Source: a bacterium
GTDB taxonomy: Bacteria; Zhuqueibacterota; QNDG01; JAFGCO01
Length of the DNA stretch: 64,000 bases
NCBI GenBank assembly: GCA_016930535.1
Contig: JAFGGN010000085.1
Span: 39,281-103,280 of the forward strand
Direction: 5' to 3'
Positions 26,401 to 50,910 of this stretch are shown here, piece by piece. Position 1 is the first letter of the stretch. Each line of letters opens with the position of its first letter. The notes beneath the pieces were generated by a model. That model was not told where the DNA came from, searched no databases, and was given only the letters and a program-made list of their open reading frames with translations. The translations under genes and the position numbers were made by a program.

Positions 26401-28033
26401 TCCAGAGCAGGAATCCGTAGCGTCCGTTGGCCACGAACAGCGTGTCGCCTACTATGGCCATGCCGTATGCATCGATATCATTGGTCAGCGCATGTGTCTG
26501 AACCGGAAGCGCGGGAAGATCAATGATGTTGTATACAAAGACACTGCTGGAATCCACCAGAATGGCCCGATTGTCACTGACCAGAATTTTTTTGGATACG
26601 CCCGGCGTATTGATCTGCTGTTTTTTGAAAAATCCGCTGTAATCGAGCACGATGAAGCCGTCCGTACCGCAGGCCAGGAGCGCATAACTGCTGCCCTGCC
26701 TCTGATAAATATCCACATCGTAGCATGCATCCTCGATGTCCGAATACTGACCGATGTCGACCGGATTGGCGGGTGTGATCACATCGAGAACACGCAGACC
26801 CGCCGTGCCGTCTGCCAGGAATGCATATCCCTGCCTGACGGTCACGCCGCGAACCTCGCCCTGCGTATTAAATGAACTGTATACGGGAAGATGGTCCTTG
26901 TCCGACTGACTGTAGCTCAGACTGATAATTTTCAAACCTGCCCGGCCGTCAGCCACATAAAGCATGTTGTTGTCAATAAACGCATCATAGGCGTAATCCG
27001 ACGGGCTGATCGTTTCAGTGACGGAGGATTGCTGTCCTTCTTTGACATCCACCAGCAACAATCCGTTGGGCCCGTCGCAGACGAGGGCCGTCGAATCGTC
27101 CTTTATCCAAACACGGTTCGTATATCCTTCCGTATTCAATGCAGGAAAAATCTGCGACCCGGGAGCTGCGGGATTCGAAATGTCGATCGGACCCACAAGG
27201 CCTTCCTCGCCGCATGCAATAAAAAGCCGGTTGCCGCGATAACGCATATCGACCACATCCAGAGGAAGACTGTCCGTCCAGGATCCCAGCTCAACGAGAT
27301 TTTCAGGATCGGAATAATCGACTGTGCGCAGACCTCCGTATCCCGCGGCCACATAGGCCACAGTTCCGCTGATGATGACGTTTTTGGCCTGCGGATCCGA
27401 TATGGGAAATCCCTGAAATGCCGGCGCAAAACCGAGAGAATCATGCACCACGGGCGTGTCTTTTTTCTTCGTATTGACGGAAAACAAACCGGATTCATGA
27501 ACCGCAAGCAGTGCGAGTGAATCGTTCACGACCCACACGTCCATGGCGGGATTGGAAGTGAGATAATATCCCTCTATTTTCGGCTGATAATAATTATGAA
27601 CACCGTAAATCAGCAGACCGCTGGTTCCGGCTGCGACATAGACGTACTTGTTGAAAAATCCGACACCCGTTGCATCTCCCTGAATCGGCACCGTTGAAAT
27701 AATCTCGAGTGTATTTTCGGCCGTGTTCAATTCAACCAGAATCAGTCCATGATGACCGCATACGGCGTAAATCATGTTCAGGGTCGATTCCACCCATATA
27801 TCCTTGATCGCGCCCGGAAGCAGAATTTCGAGATAGGGATCCAGGGAGCCTGACGCATTGGTCGTATAAACCTGAAGATAGGCACCGTTGCCGATAAATG
27901 TATAGTCGCCGCGCTGAAATACCGCTTCACAGCGTCCTTCGGCCCACTGGGCACTGCGTTCCACATTGAACTGCTGTGCCATTGATCCGAAACTGATGGT
28001 CAGCAAAAGCAGGGTAACGGTTTTTCTTAACAT
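20489..28033 (-). CDS. giant secreted protein A (2514 aa): N-terminal LVIVD-repeat beta-propeller, about 4 alternating choice-of-anchor-D Ig-like and LamG/concanavalin-A-like modules, C-terminal T9SS sorting domain
   Basis: It has a signal peptide. LVIVD-type repeats include YVADGRAGLKIISL, FLADGTAGLRVLDVITPANPV and IYLTDSESGLRVFDFSTPG. Choice-of-anchor-D-like segments include FGPVIPGQSRPRILNVINEGTTLL. LamG_3-like modules include FTLGLYHFDD...WYH...LYVNG and YTVMLYHFNESHGDTIFDNSGN. The C-terminus PNSPNPFNPVTTINFTLPQ...GVYVYQLKA is a Por_Secre_tail-type sorting domain. An RBS GAGGAG precedes the start. Confidence 0.8.
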   Translation of the reverse strand: MLRKTVTLLLLTISFGSMAQQFNVERSAQWAEGRCEAVFQRGDYTFIGNGAYLQVYTTNASGSLDPYLEILLPGAIKDIWVESTLNMIYAVCGHHGLILVELNTAENTLEIISTVPIQGDATGVGFFNKYVYVAAGTSGLLIYGVHNYYQPKIEGYYLTSNPAMDVWVVNDSLALLAVHESGLFSVNTKKKDTPVVHDSLGFAPAFQGFPISDPQAKNVIISGTVAYVAAGYGGLRTVDYSDPENLVELGSWTDSLPLDVVDMRYRGNRLFIACGEEGLVGPIDISNPAAPGSQIFPALNTEGYTNRVWIKDDSTALVCDGPNGLLLVDVKEGQQSSVTETISPSDYAYDAFIDNNMLYVADGRAGLKIISLSYSQSDKDHLPVYSSFNTQGEVRGVTVRQGYAFLADGTAGLRVLDVITPANPVDIGQYSDIEDACYDVDIYQRQGSSYALLACGTDGFIVLDYSGFFKKQQINTPGVSKKILVSDNRAILVDSSSVFVYNIIDLPALPVQTHALTNDIDAYGMAIVGDTLFVANGRYGFLLWNLQTNGVQRVTTGGNITDIQIIEKTIYLTDSESGLRVFDFSTPGLFPETGYYNTNGEALALDISASNGVVAMADGSDGVYLFRSSIQPDIAIYPESPLQFGPVIPGQSRPRILNVINEGTTLLRVDNITWLNSWFHFDDVSFTVAPGEMQQVEVTFSPPVTAGKSTQIDVASIYSNDPDEPVIELTLQAYVDTLNTSLPATRPYTRDEFTIGLYHLDDESIASSVQDASILEKDAFVQGEPTQENSQSGFNKAVRLDGESDYLQIPYHSHLNFEKTPFTVELWFNIVELPSGYAVLMRRGNNETRQVELALDNQTGQGLMGSVWDSGGNQHTIYSGSIGIFNVNQWYHAAFTWDMDSLVLYLNGDPISKAAMSNDLRPQTSEPMAIGATSTGYLPFNGLIDEIHISSIARQSWEFHVNRARISIQPSPIEFGYVLMDQTRRVPVTIYNRGSQILTIANLYTPSEFIDEEVTLPINLMPQSSTIIWMTYHPDTENDHADGQSLVIVNSDPTFPTYNVPIRGRSVSNFRAGRYEADPFTLGLYHFDDNTPLVASDSSGQEMDGAFKGSTTYDASIRKFDEGFSVKFKNTADRILVKPGSEDRFGPVWGGFTVETWFRIDRYPITQSVIIRRGNVAANQFDMYIDNGGRIIGRMYNTEQDLFEVNSSALGAVQLNQWYHTALVQREDSLYLYVNGNSVDSRYFGGTMASDQSHTILDTLSMLVGGDWLSANAFSGNVDEVRISGVGRDTWEFNVNMARISVSPSQLNFGDVFLGSSRTLELSVNNMLGMDTLFVDSIAIDLDAYYQSDTQQFYLLQEESRRIRITFKALTLGSHPGALTFYTNDPFWPERKVNLSGSGIPTIEQEPYPTDPFTLSLFHLDSVGVDGVTVGDFSGNGKHGTLHDQVAISDTGRFGGGLRFYGGYFELPSEALEGKVSAYFTVENWFRLSALPNTGALIVQRALGDNTKQFEIAFTSGENSEIVARIWNQLNQGFTLHGPESDDFNLEQWYHVSLSIDGSWARLMVNGLVQDSVSFIGDILSLAGGSVRYGSDIGGSRVFYGFMDEIRISNIDRKAWELNVIPPQIILSAYQLPFDQVKLGFTRTMNLIVTNPGDQTLTIHEISGADTIFSIPENMQTFSLNRLQSVFLPVTFKPVQATSSYARTLTIQSNAKNSPQTAITLTGTGYLSPGSAEYAADGYTVMLYHFNESHGDTIFDNSGNRLNGFLWNGSRIVNDEGFFDACIRFDGYNDRVEIPGDELLQNDFHTQSLTLECYFKTDTVSQVLIGKGFQDSLMQGDLIVGINNFGRVTVNGIDGVGPRVNDNAWHHLAFVYDHQLKTGRMFVDFTEIWSETWNTDLETADLVRPLLLGAAERKNGGYAGYFQGYLDELRFSTINREIWSMNPVIDAGIRPTALTPATPYAGDQITLTLNVPVAVNASSMTLYYRQSGRISYQTANAFPENDQTFRAVIPSEAVTLRGVEYYVEVVSSTQHMFTYPVMDPVNKPKSIPIRFESMQTQLVYTPQRMSTGRYQLAAMFSVPFFLDHIGADTVFTGISIKDYDPFQWRLFWWDPARSQVWYNYDPEGIIYVEFSDLYKGSFSMPPGRAYWLVSNIERQFSLRGGHTVSTDTSFQKELQPGWNMVGNPYNFTIKWSDCSLSSAQITPPYGWEGEDGYRPDTPYLEPWKGYWFFNASPEPGYLFIHPEDASLSKTAGNGRGLLDNLEETSWIMQISVSDDYSCDKYNYAGVREHASMQVDLYDRPEPPRGFANGVSLTFEHADWEEKPNIYAADIRPTETDGQVWKLSVLCGESQTRHQITWNHLSDLPENWKAYLIDFESEVAVDLMKDRLYGFNSDPDNMSRTFKMIAGTAQFLEKNREGISLEPVDFALLPNSPNPFNPVTTINFTLPQKSDVRISIYNALGQRVRYMVEKDCHAGKHAVEWDATDDRGMKLPTGVYVYQLKAANKTAVRKMVLIK

Positions 28034-28071: not shown

Positions 28072-29445
28072 TTATCGCTGCGGAGGTCTTGGAGGTTCAG
28101 AAAGCTGAAACGGCAGCACAGGAGCCGGAGAAATACTGGCCTCGACAAAAGGCTCACGGGAATTGTTGCCCGGAAGGATCAGGGCATTATGCTGCAATCC
28201 CATCCACTGCAGCCGGTTGTATGAACTGACGATATCCGGCGGCGGTGAAAACACGAGTCGCGCGCGTCCGCGTGCGGACGTTTCGACGAGATGCCGGACT
28301 TCATACGTCACACGCATCTGATTGTAATTCTGTGTCACTTCCCAAATTTTCGGATTCAGCATATAATCCTGGGCATTGATAAAAGAACCGTCGTATCTCA
28401 GCGCATTGTGAAAATGATTCTGGGCGATCGAGAAATTACCCTGATCGAGCGCATCAAGACCGCGGCAGTAGCTGATAAACGCCAGCATATTTTCCGTGGG
28501 AATTTCGAGCAGCTGATCACGCTGTCTGTCGTTCATAAAAATATCGAAGAAATCCGAAATCCGCATGGCCAGTTCTTTTTCAATTTTAAAAAAGCGGGCC
28601 AGATTGCCGTCGAAATTCATGCTCAGGGCTGTGGCATTCGTTTCAGCGGTAATGATTTCCGAATCCAGCGTCATCTTCAGATCATCCGTAATCAGGTACG
28701 ATCCGTTGATCAGATACCTGGCACCCAGAATACGCGCCACGCGCTGCTGAACACCCGGTTCGCGCATGCTGACCGGATTCAGTCCCAGCTCGGACATCAG
28801 ACGGTTCAGCTTGACACGGTCGATGACCACCAGATTCGGTATAGTGGAAAGGTCCTGGGCGATGATTTCAGCAAGACCTTTCTGCAGGGGATCCCATTCG
28901 ACATTGTCGCTCAGGTTGAGAAAATAGGTCACCACCACGCTGTTTTCCGGAAATTCCTCGAAACGGCGGATATCCTCTTCCTGAATGGCCTTGTTCAGTT
29001 CACGTCCGATTTTCTGCTGCGAGACCCAGTTGAGACGGCCGAACATGAAATAGCGGTAGGGATCGTCATCGGGCAGCACTTTGTAACGCCTGTAAACGGA
29101 CAGGGCCTCGTTTTCCTGATCAAGCGCCTCCCGGGACATCCCGAGAAAAAACAGAGCCTTGCCATGAGCCGGATCCTTTTCCAATACTTTTTCAAATATT
29201 TTGGCCGCGGCCGAGTAGCTCTGCTTGTGCCAGTAGGCCACACCGATTCCTGTCATCGCTTCCTTATCGTAAAGAATGAAGCGCTTCCCGTCACGGATGC
29301 GCGGCCTCAGCATCATCAGATAATTCCGGATGGCCTTGTCATAATCCTTACGATCAAGCTCTTCTTCCGCAGCATGATATTTTGAAGTTGCGCACCCGCT
29401 GAAGAACACAGCGAATATCAAAACTGCAGCAAGTTTCCATTTCAT
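28072..29445 (-). CDS. lipoprotein with N-terminal TPR region, central CsgG/LpoB/FlgO-like alpha/beta domain and Pro-rich C-terminal tail, paralog A
   Basis: The lipobox is FFSGC. It is paralogous to 37015..38442 (KDYDKAIRNYLMML vs NDYERAMQAYIRSL; DGKRFILYDKEAMTGIGVA vs DGKRYIRYQPVAMTRIGIS; LPDDDP vs LPADDP). The central segment VVVTYFLNLSDN...LAEIIAQDLS is weaker than in the paralog. The tail is SEPPRPPQR. Confidence 0.55.
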   Translation of the reverse strand: MKWKLAAVLIFAVFFSGCATSKYHAAEEELDRKDYDKAIRNYLMMLRPRIRDGKRFILYDKEAMTGIGVAYWHKQSYSAAAKIFEKVLEKDPAHGKALFFLGMSREALDQENEALSVYRRYKVLPDDDPYRYFMFGRLNWVSQQKIGRELNKAIQEEDIRRFEEFPENSVVVTYFLNLSDNVEWDPLQKGLAEIIAQDLSTIPNLVVIDRVKLNRLMSELGLNPVSMREPGVQQRVARILGARYLINGSYLITDDLKMTLDSEIITAETNATALSMNFDGNLARFFKIEKELAMRISDFFDIFMNDRQRDQLLEIPTENMLAFISYCRGLDALDQGNFSIAQNHFHNALRYDGSFINAQDYMLNPKIWEVTQNYNQMRVTYEVRHLVETSARGRARLVFSPPPDIVSSYNRLQWMGLQHNALILPGNNSREPFVEASISPAPVLPFQLSEPPRPPQR

Positions 29446-29461
29446 GAAACAACCCCAATGG

Positions 29462-30577
29462 TTATATGGTGATCTTCAGACTTGCGAGAATATCGAACCC
29501 GCTGATATCGATATCCACGACCGATTCGATGGTACCGGTCAGATACTTGAGCTGAATCCGGGAAAGCACCGTCGGGGACAATTTGTGCTGAATTCCCAGG
29601 CCCGCACCATATACGGACGCTTTGCCGAATCCGTCTTCGTTTTCGCTGTAAAAACGGCCGTCCCATAAGAGTGACAATCCGCCTTCCGGCCATTGCGTGA
29701 ATTCCCAGAGTCCGTCCGTTTCGATCTGATCCCCGATGGTCTTTTTGGATATTTTTTCCGAATCGTCCTGGGCATTTCCAGGCAGATACAGATCGTTTTT
29801 CCCTCTCTGCCTGTACCGCAATGAGGCGTACAGAAAACCGGGATTCAATCGATACGCCAGTGTGGATGATATCAGGATCTTGTCGCCGGCCTCGAGCATT
29901 TTTTCATCATTATACAGATCTTCGGTATACATGGTGTACACGAGATCCAGGCTCCATTTTCCCTTATCCTGAACGGGCATGCTCACACCGCCGACAATGT
30001 TGATTTCATCTCCGGGATCATATTCCGAATCCAGTCCGGACCATAACGAATAGGGCTGCTTCAGTATATAATTGGCTCCCAGTCCGAGCACGGTGCCTCC
30101 CTGCATCGGGAATGTCATGCCGGCGCCGACTTTGGCCGACAATCCCTGACCGTAATTGGGAAGCCGGAAACGCAGAATATTTTCACTCAGCTGCCTCGTG
30201 ATCATATATTCCGCGGCCGTCAGTTCCGTTTTTCCGGTGGGAGCGCCCACACCCATATTGATCATCCAGCGTTCATCGGCCGAGACATACGTCACACGCA
30301 GCCAGGTGTCCGAAAGACCGCTGACACTGCTGTCGCCCCAGGAAGCCGTGGCCGGTGTATTGGTCGCTGTCAGAAACCAGTTTGCATTGACAGGATAGAA
30401 GCAGAGCAAGGGAGCGGCTGTCTGGTTCAGGGACGTATCCTGGTCCTCGGCTGTCCATTGCTGGTAGGATACACCGAGATTGACATATCCGCTGCCCTTG
30501 GAGGGCTGCATGTATTCCTGAGCGAAAGCAGAGCCCGCAACCGTGGAAAGCACGATATAAAGAATCCATTTTTTCAT
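29462..30577 (-). CDS. outer-membrane beta-barrel protein, paralog B (partner of giant protein B)
   Basis: The signal peptide is MKKWILYIVLSTVAGSAFAQE. It is homologous to 19232..20452 (NYGQG, DPGDE, YRQRGKN, DGRFYSENEDG, KYLTG). There is a 26-nt gap after giant gene B and a 16-nt gap before lipoprotein A. Confidence 0.6.
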   Translation of the reverse strand: MKKWILYIVLSTVAGSAFAQEYMQPSKGSGYVNLGVSYQQWTAEDQDTSLNQTAAPLLCFYPVNANWFLTATNTPATASWGDSSVSGLSDTWLRVTYVSADERWMINMGVGAPTGKTELTAAEYMITRQLSENILRFRLPNYGQGLSAKVGAGMTFPMQGGTVLGLGANYILKQPYSLWSGLDSEYDPGDEINIVGGVSMPVQDKGKWSLDLVYTMYTEDLYNDEKMLEAGDKILISSTLAYRLNPGFLYASLRYRQRGKNDLYLPGNAQDDSEKISKKTIGDQIETDGLWEFTQWPEGGLSLLWDGRFYSENEDGFGKASVYGAGLGIQHKLSPTVLSRIQLKYLTGTIESVVDIDISGFDILASLKITI

Positions 30578-30603
30578 ATTTTATCCTTCTTCCTGAATCC
30601 GGA

Positions 30604-33600
30604 TTATCTGACGAGCATCATTTTTCGTATGGCCACCCTGCCCGGGAACTCGAGTTTGTAAAAATAAATACCGGAAGACAGGGCCGTCCCGCGGTTCGAG
30701 AGGCCGGACCATCTGATTTCATACTCACCGGACTGCTGTTCCTGATTGATCAGGACGTTCACGCATTCACCCCGCATATTGTACACGCTCAGCTTGACAT
30801 GACCCGTACGGGGCAGCGAGTATTTAATCATTGTTACCGGATTGAATGGATTCGGATAATTCTGATACAGATGGAATTCGCGTGGTGCAACCGCATTCTC
30901 CAGCTGCTTCTGAACGAATTCCGGCGGACCGGCAATGCATTTCAGGAAACGGACATTGGGAACCTCATCCGGGGTTACCATGGCATAATCGTCCATGTCC
31001 GTGACATCGAGGGCAATGCCTTCCCGTTCGTCGACCAGCATGATCTTCCAGGATTCAGGCAGCGTCTGAACCATCTGCCAGGTCAGTTTGATCAGCTTCT
31101 TATTCAGAGAAGATTCCACGGCGATATCCCAGACAAAGCCCTCTTCCTGCGGCGAGCGGATGTCCGCCGCGTAGGTCCCGGGATGTCCGGCCCAGTCTGA
31201 ATGATCGAAGAACACGGAAATATACTCACCGATGGGCGGCGGCTCGACACGGTCCCTCAGATCCCATTCGGCTCTTGCATCCTGCCGTACACCGATATAA
31301 TTGTCGAGATCCTCCGCCGATTCGGCCCGTGCAGACAATTTCCATATCCAGTCGGATTCTGCCAGCGATTCCAGCACGCCTCCGCGTGTGGCCGCACCTT
31401 TTGCGAGCGCTGCGGATTCACGCGGCGGGACAATCAAATCGTTATAGGTTCTCCCGGCATTGTATATCCAGTAGCCGCCCCACGGATCGAGCGTGGGCCA
31501 GTCAAGCCGGTATCCCATGCCGTTATAGTAGTACAGCGTTTCCAATGAATCTGAAGTCAGGGCGCAGTCGTTCCAGTGCACCGTGAACGGGAAAGGCGAA
31601 CCGATCATGCTCCACTGCGGCCTGAGTGAAAAGCGGTAGGGACCGTTTGTGGAAACCGAAGCGCCTGCATTCACGTCCCACAGTTTCCGTGCCGCCGAAA
31701 TGACCCAGAATGCGCGTCCCTGATCGAATGCAAACACGAGGCTGTCCGCATAGGACAGGCTGTCGTCCATTTCCCAGTATGACGTATCCTTCCAGGTCAG
31801 GCAGCGCCATTCATAGGGATCCCAGACATTGTTGAATTCATCCAGCAGCACGGTTCCCGCATTGGCATCGTCCAGATCGGCCGGAACCGAAACCATGACA
31901 TACTTCTTTTTCAGGAACATGGCCGAGGTATCCGCAGTCAGTGAATTGAAACGCACACGCGCGGCCATCGGCCGGTTGATCGGATCGTACAGGGGATGCG
32001 TCGATGTGCGGCCGGATGTGACCATTTCCACATAAAATTCGAGACCCCGTTCCGTCATCTGGTCTGCGGGAACGATCGCCTGATACAGGGTCGGAACAAG
32101 CTGATCAGGCGTCGCTGTTAGTGTCTGATATCCTCTCTGTCCCCCCTGCCTGTAATGGAGATACACTTCTTTATCCGTCGTTGTGACTGGAACCGTGATC
32201 TGAACCGCCTGCTGCACGCCCTTCTGCGGCACGGTTGTATAGGATGCGGAAATACCGGTTCCCTTGAAGATCAGGTCCCAGGGCTGACGGGCGATGCTTG
32301 AAATTCTGATTTCATCCATGGTCCCGTCAAAAAAACCGGTGAGCTGGCCTGTTGCGGTTTCACGGGCCGCAAATACAAGCCTTCCCGGAGAGACGATGTC
32401 CGTATCCCCCGCATGCCACAAGCCCTGCAGTTCCACATTGCCGTCCAGATACAGGGTGGCCTGCTGGACCGTTCCGTCATACACGAATGCCGCGTGATGC
32501 CATACCCCGTCCGCCACGCAGGTGTTCCCCTTGCCGAATCCGTGCAGGGTCAGGAGCCCGTCCGTATCGATGATCAGGCCGTAATTGCTGCGGTTTTCCG
32601 AGCCGGATATATGGGGATCCTTGTGGAACAGCACCTGGTTGAGCGTGTCGGTTTTAAAGAAGCATTCGACCGTGAAACTTTCGGTGGACAAATCGAACTG
32701 AAGACCCGCATCATCCGCCACCCACATGTACTCGTCCACGCCGTTGAAGGACAAACCGCCGGAGAAATAAGCGGGATTTACGCGCGATCCCGTGCCGGCC
32801 ATGGTCCCGTTATGATTTCCGGTCGCATCCGCGACACTCAATCCGGTTTCATCGCAATGCCAGAGCGCCACCGTATACTGATCGAGCCCGTAGGGCACTT
32901 TGGGCCGGTAATCGATTCCCACGGCCAGTATCGGAACGCTGAGCATCGGCGTGTCCGGATCGTTGCTGAAAATCCTCAATGTATCCGTCACGGTTCTGAT
33001 TGTGTCCGGAACGAACTGGACGAACAGGTTGGTCGTTTCTCCTGCGGTCAGCGTGATTTTTGCCGGTGCCATCAGGAAAACGGACTGATTCGTGCGGATC
33101 GTATCGATCACGAGAGGAACGCCGCCTATATTCGACACTTCGATAATGCGGTTCGCGGAACTGCCGACCATGACGGTACCGAATTCGAGACGCTGTGCGG
33201 CCGTATAAATATTGGGAATGCCGACATTGAACTCCTCGGGCTGACGGTCGATATTCGAAAAACGGATTTCATCCAGATACCCGTTGAACCCGTGACCGGT
33301 ACCGTAATCACCGCCCAGAGCCAGATCCGCAACCGAACTGCGCAGCGTTCCGTTAAAAGCAACGGAATCCACGGCCACGCCGTTGACGTACAGCCTGAAT
33401 TTGTTCAGATCCCATGTGAGTGCCATCTGATACCAGGAATCGATGTTCATTTCAGTATCCGGAGGTCCGTACAATGTGTAGATCTGCCCGCCCGAACTGT
33501 ACAGGCGGATCACGAGGCCCTTGCCCGCGGTCAGCGTATCGCCGTACATGACTTCGTACTGCAGACTGGTGCCGCTGCCGCGCCGGAATAATGTGTAGAA

Positions 33601-36600
33601 ATTTTTGCCGGAGGGTTTGGCAGAAAGGCTGAACCAGGTTTCGAGGCTGAACGGAGACGATGCATAATTGAAAACCGGATTGTACGGAACCCGTACCCAG
33701 CCGGAACTGCCGAGAAACCTGAGCGATGACAATCCGAACTTTTTATAAATGTCGGACCAGGACAGGCCGCCGCCTTCAAAATATCCGACAAGGCCTTTGC
33801 CCGAAGCGTCGGGTATCGAATCCATTTCCACGGTTCCGTCCAGATGCCAGAGACCGGATGTATATGTGTCCGTCACGTAGGCGCCCAGATTGATGGTCTC
33901 GAATCCGTTCCCCGAAAGCGGCACGCGGATCAGGGACTGAAACTGATCCTGTGAACGGATAAACAGCGTATCCGTGTATGCCTGGGCATTCGTGGGCCTG
34001 AATCCGACCCAGATCAGTCGCTGGCCGGAGGAATTGATGCTGAATTCGGGTTCCGACACGGTGAAATGCGGATTCTTCGTGTACAGGCTGTCCACATAAA
34101 GGACGCCCGATCCCACATTGCGCACATACATATAGATATACTTTGAACGGTTGACATAGACATTGCCGAATGCGAGGGACCCGTAAGGTACCTGGATGCG
34201 TCCCGTATTGATGTTGAATTCCCACGGCTGACGCGCGATGCCCGAAAGCCGCATTTCGTCGAGTGTTCCGTGAAACGGCTTTGTCAGACCCGGATCGTTC
34301 CCAACCGTCGCTGTCAGCAGGCCAGTGGGCTCCGGCACGTCCGTCTCTTTCTCATCCGCCAAAAAGCCGTTCAGATAGAGCTTCAGATCCTCACCGTACG
34401 TCAGCGCACCGTGGTACCATTGCCCCGTTGTCAACGGGAATTCGGCATCCGACAGCAGGGTGTCGATCGTGACCGCATTTTCGGAGGACAGGCCCATCAG
34501 CCGGTTGTTACGCACGCTGAGCTCGAACACGATCCTGTCTCCTTCAGACAGCCGGAACAGCACGCCGGTGCCTTCCGGAATCTGATCGAGTTTGAACCAG
34601 GTCTCGATACTGAATCCGGGCCACTCTTCCACAGGCAGAAGATCCATGTTGTTCAGCTGCACGTTCACGATATCGTTTTCATTGAATACCAGTCCCTGCC
34701 CGAACCGTCCCATGCCTGTTCCTGAAACAGCCGCTCCGGTGACGGTGCCGTCCATATAACCATACAGGGATTCATCGGGAAGCGTTTCACCTTCGAGGGC
34801 ATTCATATGATACAGCATGAATGTGTAGTAATCAGGCTGGTATGCCGCCACATCGATGGTGTTCACACCCGTGCCGATCACTTTCAGCAGATGCGGACTG
34901 TTCGTCGCATCCGAATAGAATCTCAGTGTGTCCCTCACGGTTCCGGTTGTGGACGGTGCAAAACGAACCTCCATCCAATCCTCGCCCGGACTGATCCACC
35001 TCGGCAGGTTCGCTCCGTAGAACCGTCCCGATGTGGAGGTGGATTCGTTGACATAAACCGATGCAGTGCCCGCATTTACCACGCGTACCCACAGGGATCT
35101 CGACTGCCCGAGCACGACACTGCCGAAATGGACAGAATCCGCATCAATCACCAGCTGGCCCGTAAAATCACCGGAGAAATAATAAACGCCCCCGATGCCG
35201 TCGGCCAGTGCCAGGGTGTCCCCCATCACCTTGATGCCGTAACTCGACCCCGCCGTATGATAGTAACCGACTTCAGAGAATTCCTCCTCGTTGGATGTAT
35301 CGATCAGGCGCATGGTCCCCTGTCCGTCCGCAACAACGGCCACATTGTCATGAAAACTGACGTCATAGGCATACCCATCCGTATTGTACTGTCCTGCCGG
35401 AACGATATTTTCCAGATTTGAGACATTCAATCCGACCAGGCCATTCGGTCCGTCCGCCAGATAGATCCTCTCCGATCCCTCGCCCTGCAGTCCCACGGCC
35501 ATGGTATGACTGCTGCTCTTGTAGGATCCGACAATGGTCTGTGTCGGAATATTCACGACTTTCACGCCATTGGTATCGGCCGATACGTAGAGCCGGTTCG
35601 AACGGGCATCGGCTTCCACACCCACGGCCCGTATGCCGGTGACACCTTCGAGCATGCCCTGATTCAGGGGTTCGAAGGGATTGGTCACATCGATTTTTCG
35701 TACACCGGCGGTTCCCTCTGCCGCATAGGCATAGTCCCCGGCGACCGTGACATCCAAAAATTCACTTGCAGTTTGAAAATGCGTGATATAGGCCGGCTGC
35801 AGAGGATTGCTGACATTATAGAAAAGCAGGCCTCCTGGACCGTCCGCGATGATCAGCACGCTGCCGGCAAGGGCAAGCCCCTGGGCATTCTCCGTGTCCC
35901 AATGGGACCGGAGCGTCACCTGACTATCGTGCAGCTGCGAATTGTCCAGAATCCAGACACCGCTCTGTCCTCCTGCCACATACGTCGTATTGGCGGTCAG
36001 GACCAGGTCCATGGCACTCCCGCCGGTCATAATCTGCTCGTTCTCCTGCGGAGGAGCCACGGCCACGTCGATTTCCCTCAGTCCGTCGTTTCCGTCCGCC
36101 AGATAGGCATAGTCCGGTCCCAGGTAGACGGCGAGCGCTTCTCCGCCTGTATTGAGGGACGTGGCCTGATTCATCGTGGTCAGATCGATGACGCGAAGGC
36201 CGTAACCTTCATCGGATACGTAGGCTTTCTCGGCTCCGACATCCACAGCAATATCGCTCAGCAACGCATTGTCGCCGGCTTCCCACTGATCCGCAATCGC
36301 CATGTTCGACGGATTGGTCACATTGACGGCAAGAACACCGTGTGTTCTGTCCGCGACAAAAGCCTGCGTTCCCCGTACGGACACGCCAAAGGCCTTGTCA
36401 GGGGTTTTGACCGTATCCAGTCTGACAGGAGCCGCCGGATTGGTGATGTTCACGGAAACCAGACCGACTGCATCCACGGCCAGATAAGCTGTATTTCCGC
36501 TGACATAAACATCCTGGACCGGCGACGTGAACTGAAGGACGGCGACCTGGTCAAAATCGGATGTCCGGATCACGGAGAATCCCCAGCTGCCGTTGGCCAC

Positions 36601-36981
36601 GTAGATATAACCGTCCTGATAGGCCAGCCTGCGGACATCTCCGCCCGATGCCCATGTGCCTGCGAGCGTCGGATTGGTGATCAAGCTTCTGTCCAGCACA
36701 TAAACACCGGAATTCTGAACAGCTACGTAAACCTTGAATGACTGATAATAAATATCCTGGATCAGACCCGGAAACGTATACCTGGCGAAACGGTTGTCAT
36801 AATTTTCCGCATCCAGAATATCCAGATAGCTTCCGTTTCCCATGTGAAGCGCGTCGGCCGTGGTGAATATGGCCCGGCAGGGTCCGCTGGCCCAACGCGC
36901 CTGAAGCGACAGATTGTCGCTGTGCTGTGCAGAAACAGCGACGGTCACGGTCATCCATACGGTAAGAATAAGCCTTTTCAT
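30604..36981 (-). CDS. giant secreted protein B (2125 aa): LVIVD-repeat beta-propeller, about 3 choice-of-anchor-D/LamG modules, C-terminal T9SS sorting domain; paralog of giant A
   Basis: It has a signal peptide. LVIVD repeats include YAYLADGNDGLREIDV, LIIADGPGGLLFYNVSNPLQP and YAYAAEGTAGVRKIDVTNPFEP. A choice-of-anchor-D-like segment is VHFGSVVLGQSRSLWVRVVNAGTASV. LamG modules include YTFMLYHMN...WYHGALTY...LYLNG and YTVALWHCDETG...WHHAAFVYDG. The C-terminus QNYPNPFNPVTMIKYSLP...GIYFYKL is a T9SS sorting domain. The N-terminal 100 aa and the C-terminal 500 aa align with giant A. Confidence 0.8.
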   Translation of the reverse strand: MKRLILTVWMTVTVAVSAQHSDNLSLQARWASGPCRAIFTTADALHMGNGSYLDILDAENYDNRFARYTFPGLIQDIYYQSFKVYVAVQNSGVYVLDRSLITNPTLAGTWASGGDVRRLAYQDGYIYVANGSWGFSVIRTSDFDQVAVLQFTSPVQDVYVSGNTAYLAVDAVGLVSVNITNPAAPVRLDTVKTPDKAFGVSVRGTQAFVADRTHGVLAVNVTNPSNMAIADQWEAGDNALLSDIAVDVGAEKAYVSDEGYGLRVIDLTTMNQATSLNTGGEALAVYLGPDYAYLADGNDGLREIDVAVAPPQENEQIMTGGSAMDLVLTANTTYVAGGQSGVWILDNSQLHDSQVTLRSHWDTENAQGLALAGSVLIIADGPGGLLFYNVSNPLQPAYITHFQTASEFLDVTVAGDYAYAAEGTAGVRKIDVTNPFEPLNQGMLEGVTGIRAVGVEADARSNRLYVSADTNGVKVVNIPTQTIVGSYKSSSHTMAVGLQGEGSERIYLADGPNGLVGLNVSNLENIVPAGQYNTDGYAYDVSFHDNVAVVADGQGTMRLIDTSNEEEFSEVGYYHTAGSSYGIKVMGDTLALADGIGGVYYFSGDFTGQLVIDADSVHFGSVVLGQSRSLWVRVVNAGTASVYVNESTSTSGRFYGANLPRWISPGEDWMEVRFAPSTTGTVRDTLRFYSDATNSPHLLKVIGTGVNTIDVAAYQPDYYTFMLYHMNALEGETLPDESLYGYMDGTVTGAAVSGTGMGRFGQGLVFNENDIVNVQLNNMDLLPVEEWPGFSIETWFKLDQIPEGTGVLFRLSEGDRIVFELSVRNNRLMGLSSENAVTIDTLLSDAEFPLTTGQWYHGALTYGEDLKLYLNGFLADEKETDVPEPTGLLTATVGNDPGLTKPFHGTLDEMRLSGIARQPWEFNINTGRIQVPYGSLAFGNVYVNRSKYIYMYVRNVGSGVLYVDSLYTKNPHFTVSEPEFSINSSGQRLIWVGFRPTNAQAYTDTLFIRSQDQFQSLIRVPLSGNGFETINLGAYVTDTYTSGLWHLDGTVEMDSIPDASGKGLVGYFEGGGLSWSDIYKKFGLSSLRFLGSSGWVRVPYNPVFNYASSPFSLETWFSLSAKPSGKNFYTLFRRGSGTSLQYEVMYGDTLTAGKGLVIRLYSSGGQIYTLYGPPDTEMNIDSWYQMALTWDLNKFRLYVNGVAVDSVAFNGTLRSSVADLALGGDYGTGHGFNGYLDEIRFSNIDRQPEEFNVGIPNIYTAAQRLEFGTVMVGSSANRIIEVSNIGGVPLVIDTIRTNQSVFLMAPAKITLTAGETTNLFVQFVPDTIRTVTDTLRIFSNDPDTPMLSVPILAVGIDYRPKVPYGLDQYTVALWHCDETGLSVADATGNHNGTMAGTGSRVNPAYFSGGLSFNGVDEYMWVADDAGLQFDLSTESFTVECFFKTDTLNQVLFHKDPHISGSENRSNYGLIIDTDGLLTLHGFGKGNTCVADGVWHHAAFVYDGTVQQATLYLDGNVELQGLWHAGDTDIVSPGRLVFAARETATGQLTGFFDGTMDEIRISSIARQPWDLIFKGTGISASYTTVPQKGVQQAVQITVPVTTTDKEVYLHYRQGGQRGYQTLTATPDQLVPTLYQAIVPADQMTERGLEFYVEMVTSGRTSTHPLYDPINRPMAARVRFNSLTADTSAMFLKKKYVMVSVPADLDDANAGTVLLDEFNNVWDPYEWRCLTWKDTSYWEMDDSLSYADSLVFAFDQGRAFWVISAARKLWDVNAGASVSTNGPYRFSLRPQWSMIGSPFPFTVHWNDCALTSDSLETLYYYNGMGYRLDWPTLDPWGGYWIYNAGRTYNDLIVPPRESAALAKGAATRGGVLESLAESDWIWKLSARAESAEDLDNYIGVRQDARAEWDLRDRVEPPPIGEYISVFFDHSDWAGHPGTYAADIRSPQEEGFVWDIAVESSLNKKLIKLTWQMVQTLPESWKIMLVDEREGIALDVTDMDDYAMVTPDEVPNVRFLKCIAGPPEFVQKQLENAVAPREFHLYQNYPNPFNPVTMIKYSLPRTGHVKLSVYNMRGECVNVLINQEQQSGEYEIRWSGLSNRGTALSSGIYFYKLEFPGRVAIRKMMLVR

Positions 36982-37014
36982 AGAATGCTCCCTCGAGGAT
37001 TGATCTTTGATTCA

Positions 37015-38442
37015 TTATGGACGATGCGGCGGTGGCGGCGGATCCGGTAAATACCAGGGATCCAGCGGATACGGCGCCGGCGGATCCGGAGGATCCGGCA
37101 GACCATCCGGTAACAAATCGGTAAAGTCATCAAAATCGATACCTTCAAACGGATCTCTTGAATCGCTGCCAGGTATGAAACCCGCATCCAGATACCAGCC
37201 CATTTGCTGCAGCCGGTCTATGGACTGGGCACTGGCCAGGGCATCATAATCGGATTCCGCACCGAAACCGCCCGATTTATATCTCAGCCGTTTCGCCATG
37301 GTTTTACACAACAGGGCGAGATCCGGCGTTTGAACGGCAAGAAAGATATCCGTCGCTGCAAGTATCTGTTCCGCCATGGCGAACGCCGGGTCCTCTTCAA
37401 GCGCTTTGGCCAGATAGAGCTGTGCGGTCTCGTACTGCCCCAGGTCGAGCGCGTGCAGTGCATAGGCGTAATTGAAAAAAGCCCGGACACTGCGTGTGGC
37501 AGGCTCTCTCAAACGGGTTCTCTGCAAATCGGTCAGCCGAATGCCGAGATCCTTCAATAAATTGACCACCATTTTTTTCTCCAGCAGCACAATATCGCTC
37601 AACTGGCCCTGGACATCGGATTCCCTGACACCGCGAATGCCTGAAAACAGGATGGTTCTCTGGTGAAAATTGAGCTGACCGCTTCCGGCCAGCCGCATGT
37701 CCCCCTGCAGCACGGATCCCGCTCCCATCATTCTCTGAATTTTTTCGACATTTTCAATCTGACTGGATTCATTGCTTTGCCAGCCCATATATTTCTGGAG
37801 CTGCATCAGTTTATCCCTGGGAATTACCTGAAATCCACCCATCCGGTCCAGATCGCTGATAATCAGGCTTGCAACGCCTTTTGCGATGATGGTTCCTCTC
37901 AGATCGGATCCTCCGTATCTGAAATCGAGCACGACAATGCGGTCCAGCGGATATTCGGATGCAGGTCCGGGCCCCTTGGCCGCCAGCAGACGTGCCTCCT
38001 TGGAATACATCTGCTCCCGTACCGCATACAGTCTGCCTTTCATGGCATCACGGGACGGATCATCGGCCGGAAGACGGTCATAACCGGCATAGATCTGCTG
38101 GGCTTTTTTGAGGTCTCCCTTTTTTTCATAGCACACACCGAGAAAAAAATGAGCGGGGCCATAGTCGGGTGTTTTCCTGAGAATAAAATTGAACACCTTG
38201 ATGGCACCATCGACCATGTTCAGCTGCATCGCAGAAATGCCGATACGCGTCATAGCGACCGGCTGATACCGGATATACCGTTTTCCGTCCGCGGTCTGTA
38301 CCTGCAGAGACCGGATATAGGCCTGCATGGCTCTTTCGTAATCATTCTGGGCAAAAAAGGCATCACCGTTCTGCGTGGACATACTCGTGCATCCGAGCAT
38401 GAAGGCAAACAGGCCTATTCCTGCCCATCGCCACTTTGTCAT
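37015..38442 (-). CDS. lipoprotein with N-terminal TPR region, central CsgG/LpoB/FlgO-like domain and Pro-rich C-terminal tail, paralog B
   Basis: The lipobox is FMLGC. The central domain matches the AVLxF...ERxxL pattern of the CsgG/LpoB/FlgO lipoprotein fold (IVVLDFRYGGSDLRGTIIAKGVASLIISDLDRMGGFQVIPRDKLMQLQ). The C-terminal tail is DPPDPPAPYPLDPWYLPDPPPPPHRP. There is a 33-nt gap before giant gene B. Confidence 0.6.
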   Translation of the reverse strand: MTKWRWAGIGLFAFMLGCTSMSTQNGDAFFAQNDYERAMQAYIRSLQVQTADGKRYIRYQPVAMTRIGISAMQLNMVDGAIKVFNFILRKTPDYGPAHFFLGVCYEKKGDLKKAQQIYAGYDRLPADDPSRDAMKGRLYAVREQMYSKEARLLAAKGPGPASEYPLDRIVVLDFRYGGSDLRGTIIAKGVASLIISDLDRMGGFQVIPRDKLMQLQKYMGWQSNESSQIENVEKIQRMMGAGSVLQGDMRLAGSGQLNFHQRTILFSGIRGVRESDVQGQLSDIVLLEKKMVVNLLKDLGIRLTDLQRTRLREPATRSVRAFFNYAYALHALDLGQYETAQLYLAKALEEDPAFAMAEQILAATDIFLAVQTPDLALLCKTMAKRLRYKSGGFGAESDYDALASAQSIDRLQQMGWYLDAGFIPGSDSRDPFEGIDFDDFTDLLPDGLPDPPDPPAPYPLDPWYLPDPPPPPHRP

Positions 38443-38576
38443 AGACCCTCCTTAGCTCCAATGACTCCCCCCAAGGCGTAGGTGAAGATCATGGGTTATT
38501 AAGGGGAAGTAAATTTGAAGGTTACTTTGTCATTTATATAAACCTGCTTGTTCGGTATTCCTGAAAACCGGATATC

Positions 38577-39272
38577 TCATTGTTCTTTTTTCATCCTGAC
38601 CAGCCGGGCGATGGCTTGTTTCGCCTGCTCGAACTCAGGTTCGATTTCCAGCGCTTTTTTGTATTCTGCGTATGCGCCGTTGATATCGTTCTGATCCTCC
38701 AGGACGAGCCCCCTGGAAAAGCTCATAACGGCATTTATTTCCAGGGTCCCGGACCGTTCCAGCTGTCCGGCTTCTTCCTTCGTTAAAATCAGTGAAAGGT
38801 CGTTCACAATCTTACCGCTCAGTTTTTTTATCAGGGACAGTATGTCCCTGGTTTTTCCGGTGACTTCGGCGGCTTTCAGATTCTTGCCGGTTTCAACCTC
38901 GACTATTCTGAGATCGATTCGTATTTTATTATCGGAAACCACCATAAAACTGCCAAACACGAGATGCCCGGCACCGCTCATTCTGCCTACCTGCATGGCG
39001 CCGTCTCCGGACGTCATTCCGGACTGCTGCAGTTTCAATTCATCCAGCAGTTCTTTCAGACGTCTTCTTTCCACCATATGCACGGACTGAATCCGGGACA
39101 ATTCGGTGATCATCATCTCGGCCAGCCCCTGGGAAAGCGGGGCATATTTCTCGGCCTGCAGAAAAGTGCGGTTCTCAAAATCAAGAACGGCCAGTGTCAT
39201 CGGACCGGCCGTGGCATTTAAACCGCCAATCAGAACCGATGCACAGAGAATGGACCGGATCAAACGTCGCAT
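38577..39272 (-). CDS. secreted CsgG/LpoB/FlgO-like domain protein with C-terminal TPR pair
   Basis: The ORF track gives 38577..39302. The start was moved to MRRLIRSILCASVLIGG (signal peptide). The core LAVLDFENRTFLQAEKYAPLSQGLAEMMITELSRIQSVHMVERRRLKELLDELKLQQ is a strong match to the AVLPFxN...ERRxLxxL signature. The C-terminus NGAYAEYKKALEIEPEFEQAKQAIARL is a TPR. Confidence 0.6.
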   Translation of the reverse strand: MRRLIRSILCASVLIGGLNATAGPMTLAVLDFENRTFLQAEKYAPLSQGLAEMMITELSRIQSVHMVERRRLKELLDELKLQQSGMTSGDGAMQVGRMSGAGHLVFGSFMVVSDNKIRIDLRIVEVETGKNLKAAEVTGKTRDILSLIKKLSGKIVNDLSLILTKEEAGQLERSGTLEINAVMSFSRGLVLEDQNDINGAYAEYKKALEIEPEFEQAKQAIARLVRMKKEQ

Positions 39273-39540
39273 CAGCACACCTTCAACAGGTTTCAAAGCC
39301 ATGTATCCATTTAGCTTAGATTAATATACAATAATAAAAATTCATCTCATTGTCAAGATATAATTTTGTTCATTATTTTTTTTAACGTGCAACTACCATG
39401 CCCGAATATTTGTTACAAAAAAGAAATATTTTAATTGATTGTTATTTATAGGTTTGATTTTTATGAGTTTTAACCGGTCGCCTGCATTGCACCGTGGCCA
39501 TGGAGGAATTCAATACAGCCATGTGTCCGGATTCGAAAGC

Positions 39541-39556
39541 ACCGGTCATGACCGGT
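39541..39556. promoter_or_regulatory. perfect 16-bp palindrome ACCGGTCATGACCGGT in the 350-nt AT-rich divergent intergenic region
   Basis: The sequence is fully self-complementary. It lies about 270 nt upstream of the minus-strand lipoprotein operon start and about 100 nt upstream of the GWxTD gene start. It is a candidate dimeric regulator site. Confidence 0.35.
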
Positions 39557-39655
39557 TAACCCGTTTTACGAAAAACACATTGATAATAACGGGAGATTAT
39601 AGTATTTTAATCATATATGAGGGACAGGACCAAGGACGATCTGGGAAATATTCAC

Positions 39656-40915
39656 ATGAAATGCATCAGAACGGGGCTGATTTTCTGGCTGATTTTCGTA
39701 TACGCGTCCATTTCGCAATCCGTAATCAGCACACGGAACGCTCACACAGGGTATAAGAACCACAATGCGAAATTCTCGTATCAGTTCCTGATTTTTTCCA
39801 CCGCATCCCCGGACACAAACCGGCTGATGCTTTTTGTCAAACTGGCCAACCCGTCCCTTCAATTCATCAAGGCGGATTCCATTTACGAGGCCCGCTACGA
39901 ACTTTCGGCCGTCGTACTCCGCGAGAACAGGGACATTATCGATTCTCAGATTAAACGGGGGCTTTTGAAATCGAAACATTACAAAATGACACAGTTGGCC
40001 ACCCTCGTTCATTACGAGTATTTTGAATTCCTGCTTGCTCCGGACAAATACATGCTGAATATCGAATTATACGATATTGAAACACGTCAGTCTGTCCGTT
40101 CGGATGTAAACCTGCAGGTCCCTGATTTCAGCGGACAGACCATCGCCTGTACGGATATTGTCTTTTTAAAATCCCTGAACCTTGACAGCCTCGAAACGCT
40201 GGAGCCGCTGATGCCACCGGTACGTTTACCCGAAGATACAAGCTTCTGCGCAAGAATCGATCTCTTTGCCCAGGGCAGGCAGGACATCCGGATTTTTGAA
40301 ACGATTCTGAACGACCGGGGGAAAGCCGTATACCGGGACACGGTCGAAGTGAGAACCTCAGGCGGTCGTCATCCGGTCTTTTTTAAGCTGACCCAGGAAC
40401 TCCCGTTCGGGCAGTATGCACTGCAGCTCGACCTCACCGAAGGATCCATCAAAAAACAGGTGTCATCGAAATTTTACGTACAATGGGAAGGACATCCCAC
40501 TTCAATAGGCGATCTGAAACTAGCCGTTCAATCCCTGATCTATGTAATGGACAGAAAGGATTGGCGGGAACTCGAGGAGGCATCCGGCCAGGAACAGAAA
40601 GACCTGATCGAGGCTTTCTGGCAATCGCGCGATCCCGTTCCGGAAACAGCCATCAACGAGCTCGAGGAAGAATATTATCAAAGGGTCACGATCGCAAACC
40701 GGGAATTTTCCGTGCTGCAGCACAATCAAAACGGCTGGGAAACGGACAGGGGCAGAATCTATATCATCTACGGACCTCCGTCAGAGGTCAATTCCCCCCT
40801 GATTCAGTCGCAGAGCCCTGGAAGATATGAAATCTGGGATTATGGATTGCAGAGAAGATTTGTATTTTATGATAAATACGGAAACGGCAATTACAAACTG
40901 ATTTCTCAGGAGTAA
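39656..40915 (+). CDS. GWxTD domain-containing protein, secreted
   Basis: The C-terminal region contains NGWETDRGRIYIIYGPPSEV (GWxTD motif) and YEIWDY. A signal peptide runs from MKCIRTGLIFWLIFVYASISQ. The ORF track start 39617 was trimmed to the signal-peptide Met. Confidence 0.7.
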   Translation: MKCIRTGLIFWLIFVYASISQSVISTRNAHTGYKNHNAKFSYQFLIFSTASPDTNRLMLFVKLANPSLQFIKADSIYEARYELSAVVLRENRDIIDSQIKRGLLKSKHYKMTQLATLVHYEYFEFLLAPDKYMLNIELYDIETRQSVRSDVNLQVPDFSGQTIACTDIVFLKSLNLDSLETLEPLMPPVRLPEDTSFCARIDLFAQGRQDIRIFETILNDRGKAVYRDTVEVRTSGGRHPVFFKLTQELPFGQYALQLDLTEGSIKKQVSSKFYVQWEGHPTSIGDLKLAVQSLIYVMDRKDWRELEEASGQEQKDLIEAFWQSRDPVPETAINELEEEYYQRVTIANREFSVLQHNQNGWETDRGRIYIIYGPPSEVNSPLIQSQSPGRYEIWDYGLQRRFVFYDKYGNGNYKLISQE

Positions 40916-45200: not shown

Positions 45201-45242
45201 GGAAATCACCGGCTGGTCAGGAAGGCCCTGCTGCTTCAGTAA
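42237..45242 (+). CDS. 1001-aa secreted protein with divergent InlB-B-repeat-like domains and a C-terminal T9SS sorting domain
   Basis: It has a signal peptide. Internal repeats match the G-x-Y-x-x-G-x-V-x-L-x-A-x-P-x-x-G-Y-x-F-x-x-W-x-G pattern (GGTVTMLPPISKHPANSQISITAKPKPGYRFEGWTGD; GTVQVQPSQSWFDEGSVVHCTAVPGADYSFSHWSGD). The C-terminus is LEQNYPNPFNGTTILKYGLP...GMYMIVLQ. Confidence 0.75.
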   Translation: MKSFPIFPVSAMWPISLIFSITLTAQPARRVHDPVVIQGASVPAFLGKSVDAIRVYSYNAGENTWQPVLFQIDERDDTDSYIGQKDGLLSDQDEIVFLAGDMGHQAPDDNWPGDIQAKQGKRLQLRINDPLDPGSPGFVYLFDSQSLARLGTSLFTVSQDEDRVRSSTYTVTHGVHGFQNGLYLNTSAGGDSLNIIERQKFRVIGKIDYINEEIGIQEEMSGSIKILNGMESINTTVAPKSITYIADPKIRVHRYLDLEYRFKASISVLGFSFKVDKQGTYQFLTTYYPTYAEWKSGTLEITEIDNVNIREIRLTTDLRPNALGMNFYNPYNTDPIRIDLTQNNYDDTINWPGDSWHLIVANPDDPNAFLSHASLLTITRIPTIPDNSNGHLYLKESMTAVKYDTGDNMSWGDSGWQMKGNSLTGMINFNSATYYLPENLTIAQAETLSAMHLNPLYADITEQVMTYRVTLDILPWEGGTVTMLPPISKHPANSQISITAKPKPGYRFEGWTGDIESTANPLLFEITDNVQINAVFVPYIHQIAVHSEPQGLNFTADGDLFVTPAIFSWEELTSHTIAIDSIIQIDDASRWKFSDWEPHQPVSFDYQVEARDTLFSARFNTQFRLLAETEDPVTGTVQVQPSQSWFDEGSVVHCTAVPGADYSFSHWSGDTTAAVPTLILTMDRPQSVTAHFSNAPPVISDADTVIAEDHTLKLTTGDLARWIQDDATTLENLVFTFAGSGHLTADFDAENDTLTITPEPQWSGLDTVWITAADPLGAFSRAPLAVTVTQEPDPPGHFSLLSPDNHTGITDWPVTMEFLWESATDPDPGDTLTYIFELDTSSTFRSIGKIRIDHLQWTQYILLWPGELGDNRYYWRVLARDRTGLVTECNAVFSLELNTDAESGNDNVPKDFVLEQNYPNPFNGTTILKYGLPRDEHVTLIVYNSHGQQVRRLWDGMQNAGYHLVQWNGLDIQGQAVSSGMYMIVLQYGNHRLVRKALLLQ

Positions 45243-47634: not shown

Positions 47635-47648
47635 TGAACTCAGGGACT

Positions 47649-50858: not shown

Positions 50859-50910
50859 GACATTTCCTGCAGCTTATTTTCCCTGTTGGTCGACATGCAT
50901 GCACTCAACT

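Follow-up and report, generated by a model that had tools for sequence, protein, structure and literature searches.

Giant proteins with type IX sorting domains, each encoded beside a lipoprotein and an outer-membrane barrel of its own in a cassette-duplicated operon of an uncultured Zhuqueibacterota bacterium: a possible outer-membrane platform

In the cultured Bacteroidota studied, substrates exported by type IX secretion (T9SS) are retained at the cell surface by PorV and the attachment complex if they carry type A sorting signals, and by cognate PorP/SprF barrels if they carry type B signals. To our knowledge, surface retention and organization of T9SS substrates are understood only in a few cultured Bacteroidota. 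The 64,000-nt stretch of Zhuqueibacterota contig JAFGGN010000085.1 considered here (“the window”; all positions refer to it unless a locus is named) encodes two giant proteins with T9SS sorting domains, each accompanied by a lipoprotein and an outer-membrane beta-barrel, in an operon that begins with a small CsgG-like protein carrying tetratricopeptide repeats (TPRs). No description of such a four-component, cassette-duplicated cluster around T9SS giants was found in the literature searched. Searches on KSB1 and type IX secretion, and on CsgG-like proteins with TPRs, likewise yielded nothing relevant, and those combining T9SS and CsgG found only incidental co-mentions.

Among described systems, cognate PorP/SprF barrels are encoded beside the T9SS substrates they serve (PMC12618676, PMC9143113), and SprF is tethered to a track of the periplasmic lipoprotein GldK (PMC12635249). 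The window's locus resembles SprB/SprF in having a giant T9SS-exported surface protein followed by its own barrel, with partner specificity implied by co-duplication; it differs in lacking any PorP_SprF match, in having TolB_N/TPR proteins as partners instead of GldK, and in coming from organisms outside the cultured Bacteroidota. In the Pel system, 12 PelC lipoproteins form a ring on the 16-stranded barrel of PelB, and TPRs lie within that ring (PMC12141448). There the TPRs are fused to the barrel, whereas here they are fused to the lipoprotein, and the cluster is centered on a T9SS protein cargo. A further point of comparison is CsgG, in which a core domain carries two transmembrane beta-hairpins and nine copies build a channel (PMC4551309).

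The region of interest is a seven-gene minus-strand operon consisting of one shared small gene and two diverged lipoprotein-giant-barrel cassettes. Its open reading frames (ORFs) follow one after another from 39272 to 19232:

38577..39272, minus strand: small CsgG-like/TPR protein, 231 aa, first gene of the operon
38772..39203, minus strand: alpha/beta (CsgG/TolB_N-like) domain of the small protein, residues about 24-167
38598..38735, minus strand: C-terminal TPR of the small protein (TPR_1, TPR_2, and TPR_11 at residues about 195-225; also TPR matches in the PDB)
37015..38442, minus strand: lipoprotein A, 475 aa, second gene (lipobox, 3-TPR domain, TolB_N/CsgG-like alpha/beta domain, second TPR-like helical region, disordered tail)
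37543..37950, minus strand: alpha/beta domain of lipoprotein A, residues about 165-300
37018..37101, minus strand: conserved C-terminal peptide of lipoprotein A, GLPDPPDPPAPYPLDPWYLPDPPPPPHRP-COOH, residues 448-475
30604..36981, minus strand: giant 1, 2125 aa, third gene
29462..30577, minus strand: barrel 1, 371 aa, fourth gene
28072..29445, minus strand: lipoprotein B, 457 aa, fifth gene
20489..28033, minus strand: giant 2, 2514 aa, sixth gene
19232..20452, minus strand: barrel 2, 406 aa, seventh gene

The gaps between these genes are 134, 33, 26, 16, 38, and 36 bp, in gene order. A preliminary description of the window had singled out the small gene and the two lipoprotein genes, and all three are present on the minus strand at the coordinates it gave. 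It had pictured them as a block of three copies upstream of the giants; they are instead interleaved with the other genes (small, lipoprotein A, giant 1, barrel 1, lipoprotein B, giant 2, barrel 2). The two barrel genes and the T9SS sorting domains had no place in that description. Its counter-case, in which they would form a separate transcription unit, gets no support from the gene spacing. A scan for promoters and terminators inside the operon did no better than shuffled controls, and the sigma-70 rules it used may not fit this lineage.

Each component of the first cassette has a paralog in the second, at similar divergence: lipoproteins A and B are 27% identical (E 1e-43), bearing out the earlier suggestion that 28072..29445 is a diverged paralog of 37015..38442; the giants are 31% identical over 1575 residues; and the barrels are 29% identical (E 5e-55), with barrel 2 also recovered by a barrel profile (E 9e-131). 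In neighbor-joining trees, barrel 1 separates from barrel 2, and lipoprotein A from lipoprotein B, as two clades containing the same genomes, which implies that the duplication is old and that all the partners have been retained together.

Related loci were sought by scanning one genome per species with a barrel profile, which returned 23 loci (further metagenome contigs were also found), and classifying the neighboring ORFs by hidden Markov model scan. The source genomes are labeled “bacterium,” candidate division KSB1, Candidatus Zhuqueibacterota, “Cytophagia,” Calditrichia, and “Salinivenus.” All seven genes recur in five loci (layout I: L001, from a Zodletone metagenome-assembled genome (MAG), L003, L005, L010, and L012), while L015 has a single small-lipoprotein B-giant-barrel 2 set. 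L001/L008, L006/L017, and L010 all come from Zodletone spring bins. In a second arrangement (layout II), the order is a lipoprotein-like gene, a gene for an FGE-sulfatase-like protein, a giant of 2800-3100 aa, a barrel, and the small protein; the giant-barrel-small combination is found in MAGs labeled KSB1, Zhuqueibacterota, or “Cytophagia.” In a third (layout III), found in MAGs labeled Calditrichia or “Salinivenus,” a CsgG-like protein (363-393 aa) and a lipoprotein-like protein (457-500 aa) are encoded upstream of the barrel. Synteny with the giant and the barrel is kept even between loci with barrels no more than 23-35% identical. Of all the partners, the barrel shows the most faithful linkage, lying directly downstream of the giant twice in the window and in nearly all related loci with enough flanking sequence. 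The small protein, present as one copy, is better conserved than any other component; it occurs in layouts I and II and is 41-60% identical to its orthologs in six loci, one of them in a KSB1-labeled MAG. A word-indexed search of a 5.8-billion-sequence index recovered 32 barrel relatives and 7-20 lipoprotein relatives, but TPR words saturated its candidate list and it missed the window's own lipoprotein paralog.

The secreted FGE-sulfatase-like protein of layout II, of about 390 aa, is encoded directly upstream of the giant and is absent from the window's cluster (L006 1..671; L007 733..1529; L021 142..1470; L022 95..1249; L023 271..1455; L025 78..1259). Its fold family is that of the T9SS/gliding lipoproteins GldK and PorK. 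One barrel homolog (L027, JAFGPP010000016.1) comes from a contig of 3247 bp whose bin is labeled “Thermoplasmatota archaeon”; since the protein is a bacterial outer-membrane barrel, this label is most likely a binning error.

The co-duplication, conserved order, and tight spacing (16-134 bp) suggest that each lipoprotein and barrel act on their own giant. We tentatively propose, at somewhat less than an even chance, that they belong to a dedicated outer-membrane platform holding or assembling each T9SS-exported giant, and combining features of PelB/PelC and SprB/SprF. The giant would cross the outer membrane via the general T9SS translocon, and the cognate barrel, the lipoprotein, and the shared soluble periplasmic small protein would make up the platform that receives, holds, or assembles it at the surface. 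The TolB_N-like/TPR proteins might scaffold the barrel on its periplasmic face, possibly as an oligomer, as PelC does under PelB, and a conserved C-terminal PPxPP peptide might fit into a TPR groove or attach to the cognate partner. A stronger version can be imagined, with a TolB_N/CsgG-like plus TPR oligomer, locked by the polyproline peptide, under a dedicated 16-stranded barrel that carries one specific T9SS giant adhesin; uncultured candidate phyla of the FCB group (MAGs labeled KSB1, Zhuqueibacterota, Calditrichia, and relatives) would then have an envelope machine not described before. In this full form the proposal seems unlikely. If true, it would amount to an equivalent, outside the Bacteroidota, of the SprB-SprF-GldK adhesin carrier, with parts resembling PelC and PelB.

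Export by the T9SS is suggested by the giants themselves. Both are composed of LVIVD repeats, Ig-like domains (ASH/HYDIN), and Laminin_G_3 domains; giant 1 begins with a signal peptide, has three of the last, and ends in a T9SS type A sorting domain, with an FlgD_ig match also at its C-terminus. Por_Secre_tail scores are above the Pfam cut-off of 27 (29.2 bits for giant 2 and 28.3 bits for giant 1), while the type B model CHU_C remains below its cut-off (25.5 and 18.3 bits). With type A sorting domains on the giants, their passage through the outer membrane is most simply assigned to the T9SS translocon. About 500 residues near the C-terminus of each giant, before the sorting domain (20489..22100 and 30604..32200), are conserved between the two and have no Pfam annotation; in giant 2 they include GWNMVGNPYNFT and PWKGYWFFNA. 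This may be a stalk or a partner-binding region.

The small protein carries a signal peptide; its core (AVLDFENRT...VERRRLKELL) is as the preliminary description had read it. It matches Pfam CsgG (PF03783) at 53.6 bits (cut-off 20.8, E 2.4e-14); its LpoB match (PF13036, 21.7 bits) falls under the gathering score of 22.3, and its FlgO match is also sub-threshold. Profile searches therefore did not assign the core to an unrelated fold, and the proposed CsgG/LpoB/FlgO fold class stands, with CsgG above cut-off for the small protein and TolB_N, LpoB, and FlgO below theirs. A single-sequence search of the PDB found only TPR proteins; CsgG came up only with a profile restricted to the alpha/beta domain, and was then the sole family matched (E 0.002). 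The view that all three proteins join this domain to TPRs holds. The small protein and its five orthologs have signal peptides, with no conserved lipobox Cys in their alignment. An in-frame ATG at 39302 offers an alternative start, giving 241 aa (+10 residues); the start at 39272 is favored by the ortholog alignment and a Shine-Dalgarno-like GAAGGTG.

The analogy with CsgG had led the preliminary description to suggest a scaffold or secretion-pore accessory role. The core alpha/beta domains are homologous, and the alignment is close enough to place GS(84-85) of the small protein on GS(125-126) of CsgG, and KIRIDLRIV(93-101) on QIAVNLRVV(153-161). Between these, where CsgG has its first hairpin in 26 residues, the small protein has 7 (about 19 missing); at the site of the second, its last strand is followed by one helix only before the TPR. 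In the lipoprotein A model, likewise, strand 270-280 runs straight into helix 281-299. With both membrane hairpins absent, a CsgG-type pore is ruled out; the small protein also differs from CsgG in being a non-lipoprotein with a TPR appended. No curli genes (csgA/B/E/F) were found among the seven operon genes and the flanks scanned. The other half of the suggestion, a functional link to the giants, is supported by spacing, gene order, and co-duplication.

The same observations bear on whether the cluster might be a secretion route of its own, independent of the T9SS, with a TpsB-like barrel or a CsgG-like oligomer as the pore, toward which the preliminary description had leaned. The small protein's Pfam match to CsgG, the presence of CdiB and FhaC among the top barrel matches, and a gene order like that of two-partner secretion (TPS) systems could all be read in this way. 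Beyond the missing hairpins, though, barrel 1 (371 aa) is essentially all barrel and has no room for POTRA domains, and the giants have T9SS sorting domains and, by domain scan, no TPS domain. A TpsB-type transporter is ruled out on these last two grounds, and a T9SS-independent route of any kind seems highly improbable.

The two lipoproteins have lipoboxes (FMLGC and FFSGC), N-terminal TPRs, and proline-rich ends, all as previously described. The alpha/beta plus TPR unit of the small protein is present in both (BLASTP E 1e-15 and 2e-20), so that each can be described as an N-terminal 3-TPR domain, a copy of the small-protein unit, and a tail; a profile of the small protein's alpha/beta domain also finds both (E 2e-08 for lipoprotein A and E 4e-20 for lipoprotein B). 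Lipoprotein A has no Pfam CsgG match, only TolB_N at 12.6 bits; lipoprotein B reaches 17.7 bits with CsgG, under the cut-off of 20.8; and neither matches LpoB in Pfam. The clear AVLDFxN...ERRxLxxL core once attributed to lipoprotein A is not found there, the sequence being IVVLDFRYGG...VIPRDKLMQL, and its fold assignment came from modeling. Some lipoprotein orthologs do have precomputed CsgG matches (L005, P0041, P0043-46).

An AlphaFold2 model of lipoprotein A, built from 15 sequences (predicted local distance difference test, pLDDT, 78; predicted template-modeling score 0.71), is confident over residues 30-385. It has TPR helices at 26-156, the alpha/beta domain at 165-300, TPR-like helices at 305-385, and disorder at 389-466. 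The alpha/beta domain has a TolB N-domain fold in this model, which places it in the TolB_N/LpoB/FlgO/CsgG-core fold class. As compared with TolB, LpoB, and FlgO themselves, the window's proteins are of the same fold class, but have no beta-propeller and no Tol-Pal or penicillin-binding protein context, and their Pfam scores are below the cut-offs. The N-terminal 3-TPR domain resembles peptide-binding TPRs (CHIP, Sti1, Sgt2, Hop, and the type III secretion chaperone AcrH).

Two details of the lipoproteins may be mentioned here. A conserved beta-hairpin (residues 48-57 of lipoprotein A, DGKRYIRYQP; about 38272..38301) is inserted in the first TPR of both, an unusual feature for a TPR domain, and R55 and Y59 are near-invariant across both paralog clades. 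In one lipoprotein A ortholog (P0006, L003 10001..11446), LMLGF replaces LMLGC; with the lipobox Cys lost, lipidation is evidently not universal in the family.

The pairing of an alpha/beta domain with TPRs is in itself common. A HMMER search with the small protein reached 14,929 cluster representatives (E<=1e-3), of which 3597 passed E<=1e-10 and 62 passed E<=1e-30, for the most part matched over the alpha/beta plus TPR stretch, within proteins of 225-2400 aa, and often in multiple copies. Compared with Pfam, ten of the matched proteins had CsgG, FlgO, LpoB, or TolB_N matches along with arrays of TPRs, FG-GAP repeats, or domains of the OmpA or Ig-like kinds, and the lipoprotein profile also reaches regulators with a winged-helix domain followed by TolB-like and TPR regions. 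A novel domain fusion was considered and rejected on this basis, since the unit recurs in thousands of proteins; by sequence, the pairing is a common periplasmic unit, and it is the gene cluster that is uncommon. As an isolated case, a KSB1-labeled locus (L006 12326..14101) encodes a 591-aa protein with precomputed Pfam matches to CsgG and, weakly, to FlgT_C; it ends in ...GLSYSF, which by eye looks like an outer-membrane barrel, and if so, it would have the alpha/beta domain and a barrel in one chain.

So widespread a unit might belong to a generic module for envelope maintenance or sensing, of the LpoB, CpoB, TolB, or CadC type, adjacent to the giants by chance. The closest structural matches of the TPR and alpha/beta domains are YbgF/CpoB and TolB, respectively, and the alpha/beta plus helical unit resembles the periplasmic domain of CadC (3ly8; the match spans 255 columns) and is shared with CadC-type or “TolB-like + TPR” signaling proteins, including winged-helix regulators, as well as with many other architectures. 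These relatives, however, are inner-membrane regulators or multi-copy arrays, while here the unit is in a lipoprotein or a free periplasmic protein and is tied to a barrel and a giant. Chance adjacency is very unlikely given the synteny with giant and barrel at 23-35% barrel identity, the cassette-wise co-duplication, and the 16-38 bp intergenic gaps.

The C-terminal tails of the lipoproteins are better conserved than their folded domains. Among nine lipoprotein A orthologs, 46-56% identical overall, the last 28 residues have a mean column identity of 0.92, the highest of any segment of the protein; the RLQxMG...PGSDSR segment has 0.88, and the folded domains 0.66-0.73. The terminal peptide is predicted to be disordered (pLDDT below 50). 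Lipoprotein B ends in ...RLQWMG...LPGNNSREPF...LSEPPRPPQR-COOH, and its orthologs have in common RLQWMG...LPGxDSR...L(S/G)EPPxPPxR-COOH; the layout II lipoprotein homologs end in ...LGYLPGNDSRNG...PPxPPxK-COOH. A pattern of RLQxMG...PGxDSR...PPxPP-basic-COOH is thus kept at the extreme C-terminus even in distant homologs, in paralog-specific versions. The tails had previously been thought to span the periplasm. This underestimates them: with the last 28 residues the most conserved of the protein and the motif persistently terminal, a passive periplasm-spanning spacer is ruled out. Being highly conserved, always at the extreme C-terminus, and paralog-specific, they are more plausibly docking peptides. 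Given the likeness of the N-terminal TPR to domains whose ligands are C-terminal peptides, a TPR groove would, by analogy, be a natural candidate for their partner.

Peptide-binding TPRs also suggest another role, as periplasmic pilots or chaperones. The lipoproteins and the small protein would keep the giant export-competent and deliver it to the T9SS, with the barrel acting as a post-translocation shuttle or having a separate role. The likeness of the 3-TPR domain to those of CHIP, Sti1, and AcrH, among others, would fit, as would the position of each lipoprotein gene directly upstream of its giant and the co-divergence of the paralog pairs. This account does not explain why the barrel should be the most faithful partner, nor why a chaperone should have a conserved peptide at its extreme C-terminus, and we know of no T9SS substrate that needs a TPR chaperone. 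We regard it as rather unlikely.

Barrel 1 has a signal peptide and a predicted outer-membrane beta-barrel of roughly 16 strands, with a conserved loop, PTGKTxL...FRFRLPxYGQG. It has no Pfam match, including PorP_SprF, at E<=1, and 32 family members match only OMP_b-brl and Phenol_MetA_deg. In fold comparisons it resembles barrels of the PelB/BcsC/PgaA type, but CdiB/FhaC and porins score almost as high, so this match is not specific.

If it were taken at face value, the barrel, a ring of TolB_N-like lipoproteins, and TPRs could form a gate of the PelBC/BcsC/PgaA kind, exporting a polymer to which the lectin-rich giants bind. The conserved cluster, in the window and the related loci scanned, includes no glycosyltransferase, synthase, or other gene for polymer synthesis or modification. 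The co-duplication of barrels with giants also points to a protein partner, and together with the unspecific fold match this makes a polymer gate improbable.

For the proposed outer-membrane platform itself, four points weigh on the other side. Locus L029, from Calditrichia, has its lipoprotein-like gene directly next to the barrel gene, with no giant in between, so the core trio can exist without an adjacent giant. The most conserved motifs of the barrel are in a predicted extracellular or lumenal loop rather than in periplasmic turns, and so provide no argument for contact with a periplasmic ring. Known cognate-barrel systems serve type B sorting domains, while these giants have type A domains. 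Finally, complex formation, its stoichiometry, tail binding, and the anchoring role are all inferences.

The arrangement does suggest that, in uncultured lineages of the FCB group, individual giant substrates of type A are each supplied with a barrel and a lipoprotein. Should the complex prove real, the cognate-carrier principle would extend to new phyla and new protein families, and the very common and uncharacterized “CsgG-like + TPR” periplasmic unit would acquire a concrete role. In the conserved C-terminal peptide there is an interaction that could be tested simply.

Upstream of the operon, the sole long gap separates it from a divergently transcribed gene:

39303..39616, no strand assigned: AT-rich divergent intergenic region, 314 bp
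39617..40915, plus strand: GWxTD-domain protein, 432 aa (TIGR04514, 102.5 bits; PF20094, 71.9 bits)

The intergenic region is probably the promoter region for both the seven-gene operon and the GWxTD gene. The latter is a conserved neighbor, placed alike in each of the layout I loci examined (L001 7580..8857; L003 7573..8853; L005 1..289); a literature search on the GWxTD domain found nothing relevant. On the other side, 192 bp downstream of barrel 2 and on the same strand, is a gene for an S46 peptidase (DPP7-like, 634 bits; 16967..19039, minus strand).

Beyond the GWxTD gene, the window encodes another T9SS type A cargo (42237..45242, plus strand; 1001 aa, TIGR04183 30.2 bits) with Flg_new_2, Big_9, and cadherin-like domains, implying that this genome uses T9SS-type sorting signals widely; other sorting-domain proteins are encoded nearby in L003 as well. 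Farther on are tandem PAS histidine kinases (45829..49433 and 49434..53133, both minus strand), one being a hybrid kinase that includes a receiver domain, which together with an adjoining HD-domain protein and HEAT-repeat protein look like a signaling cluster.

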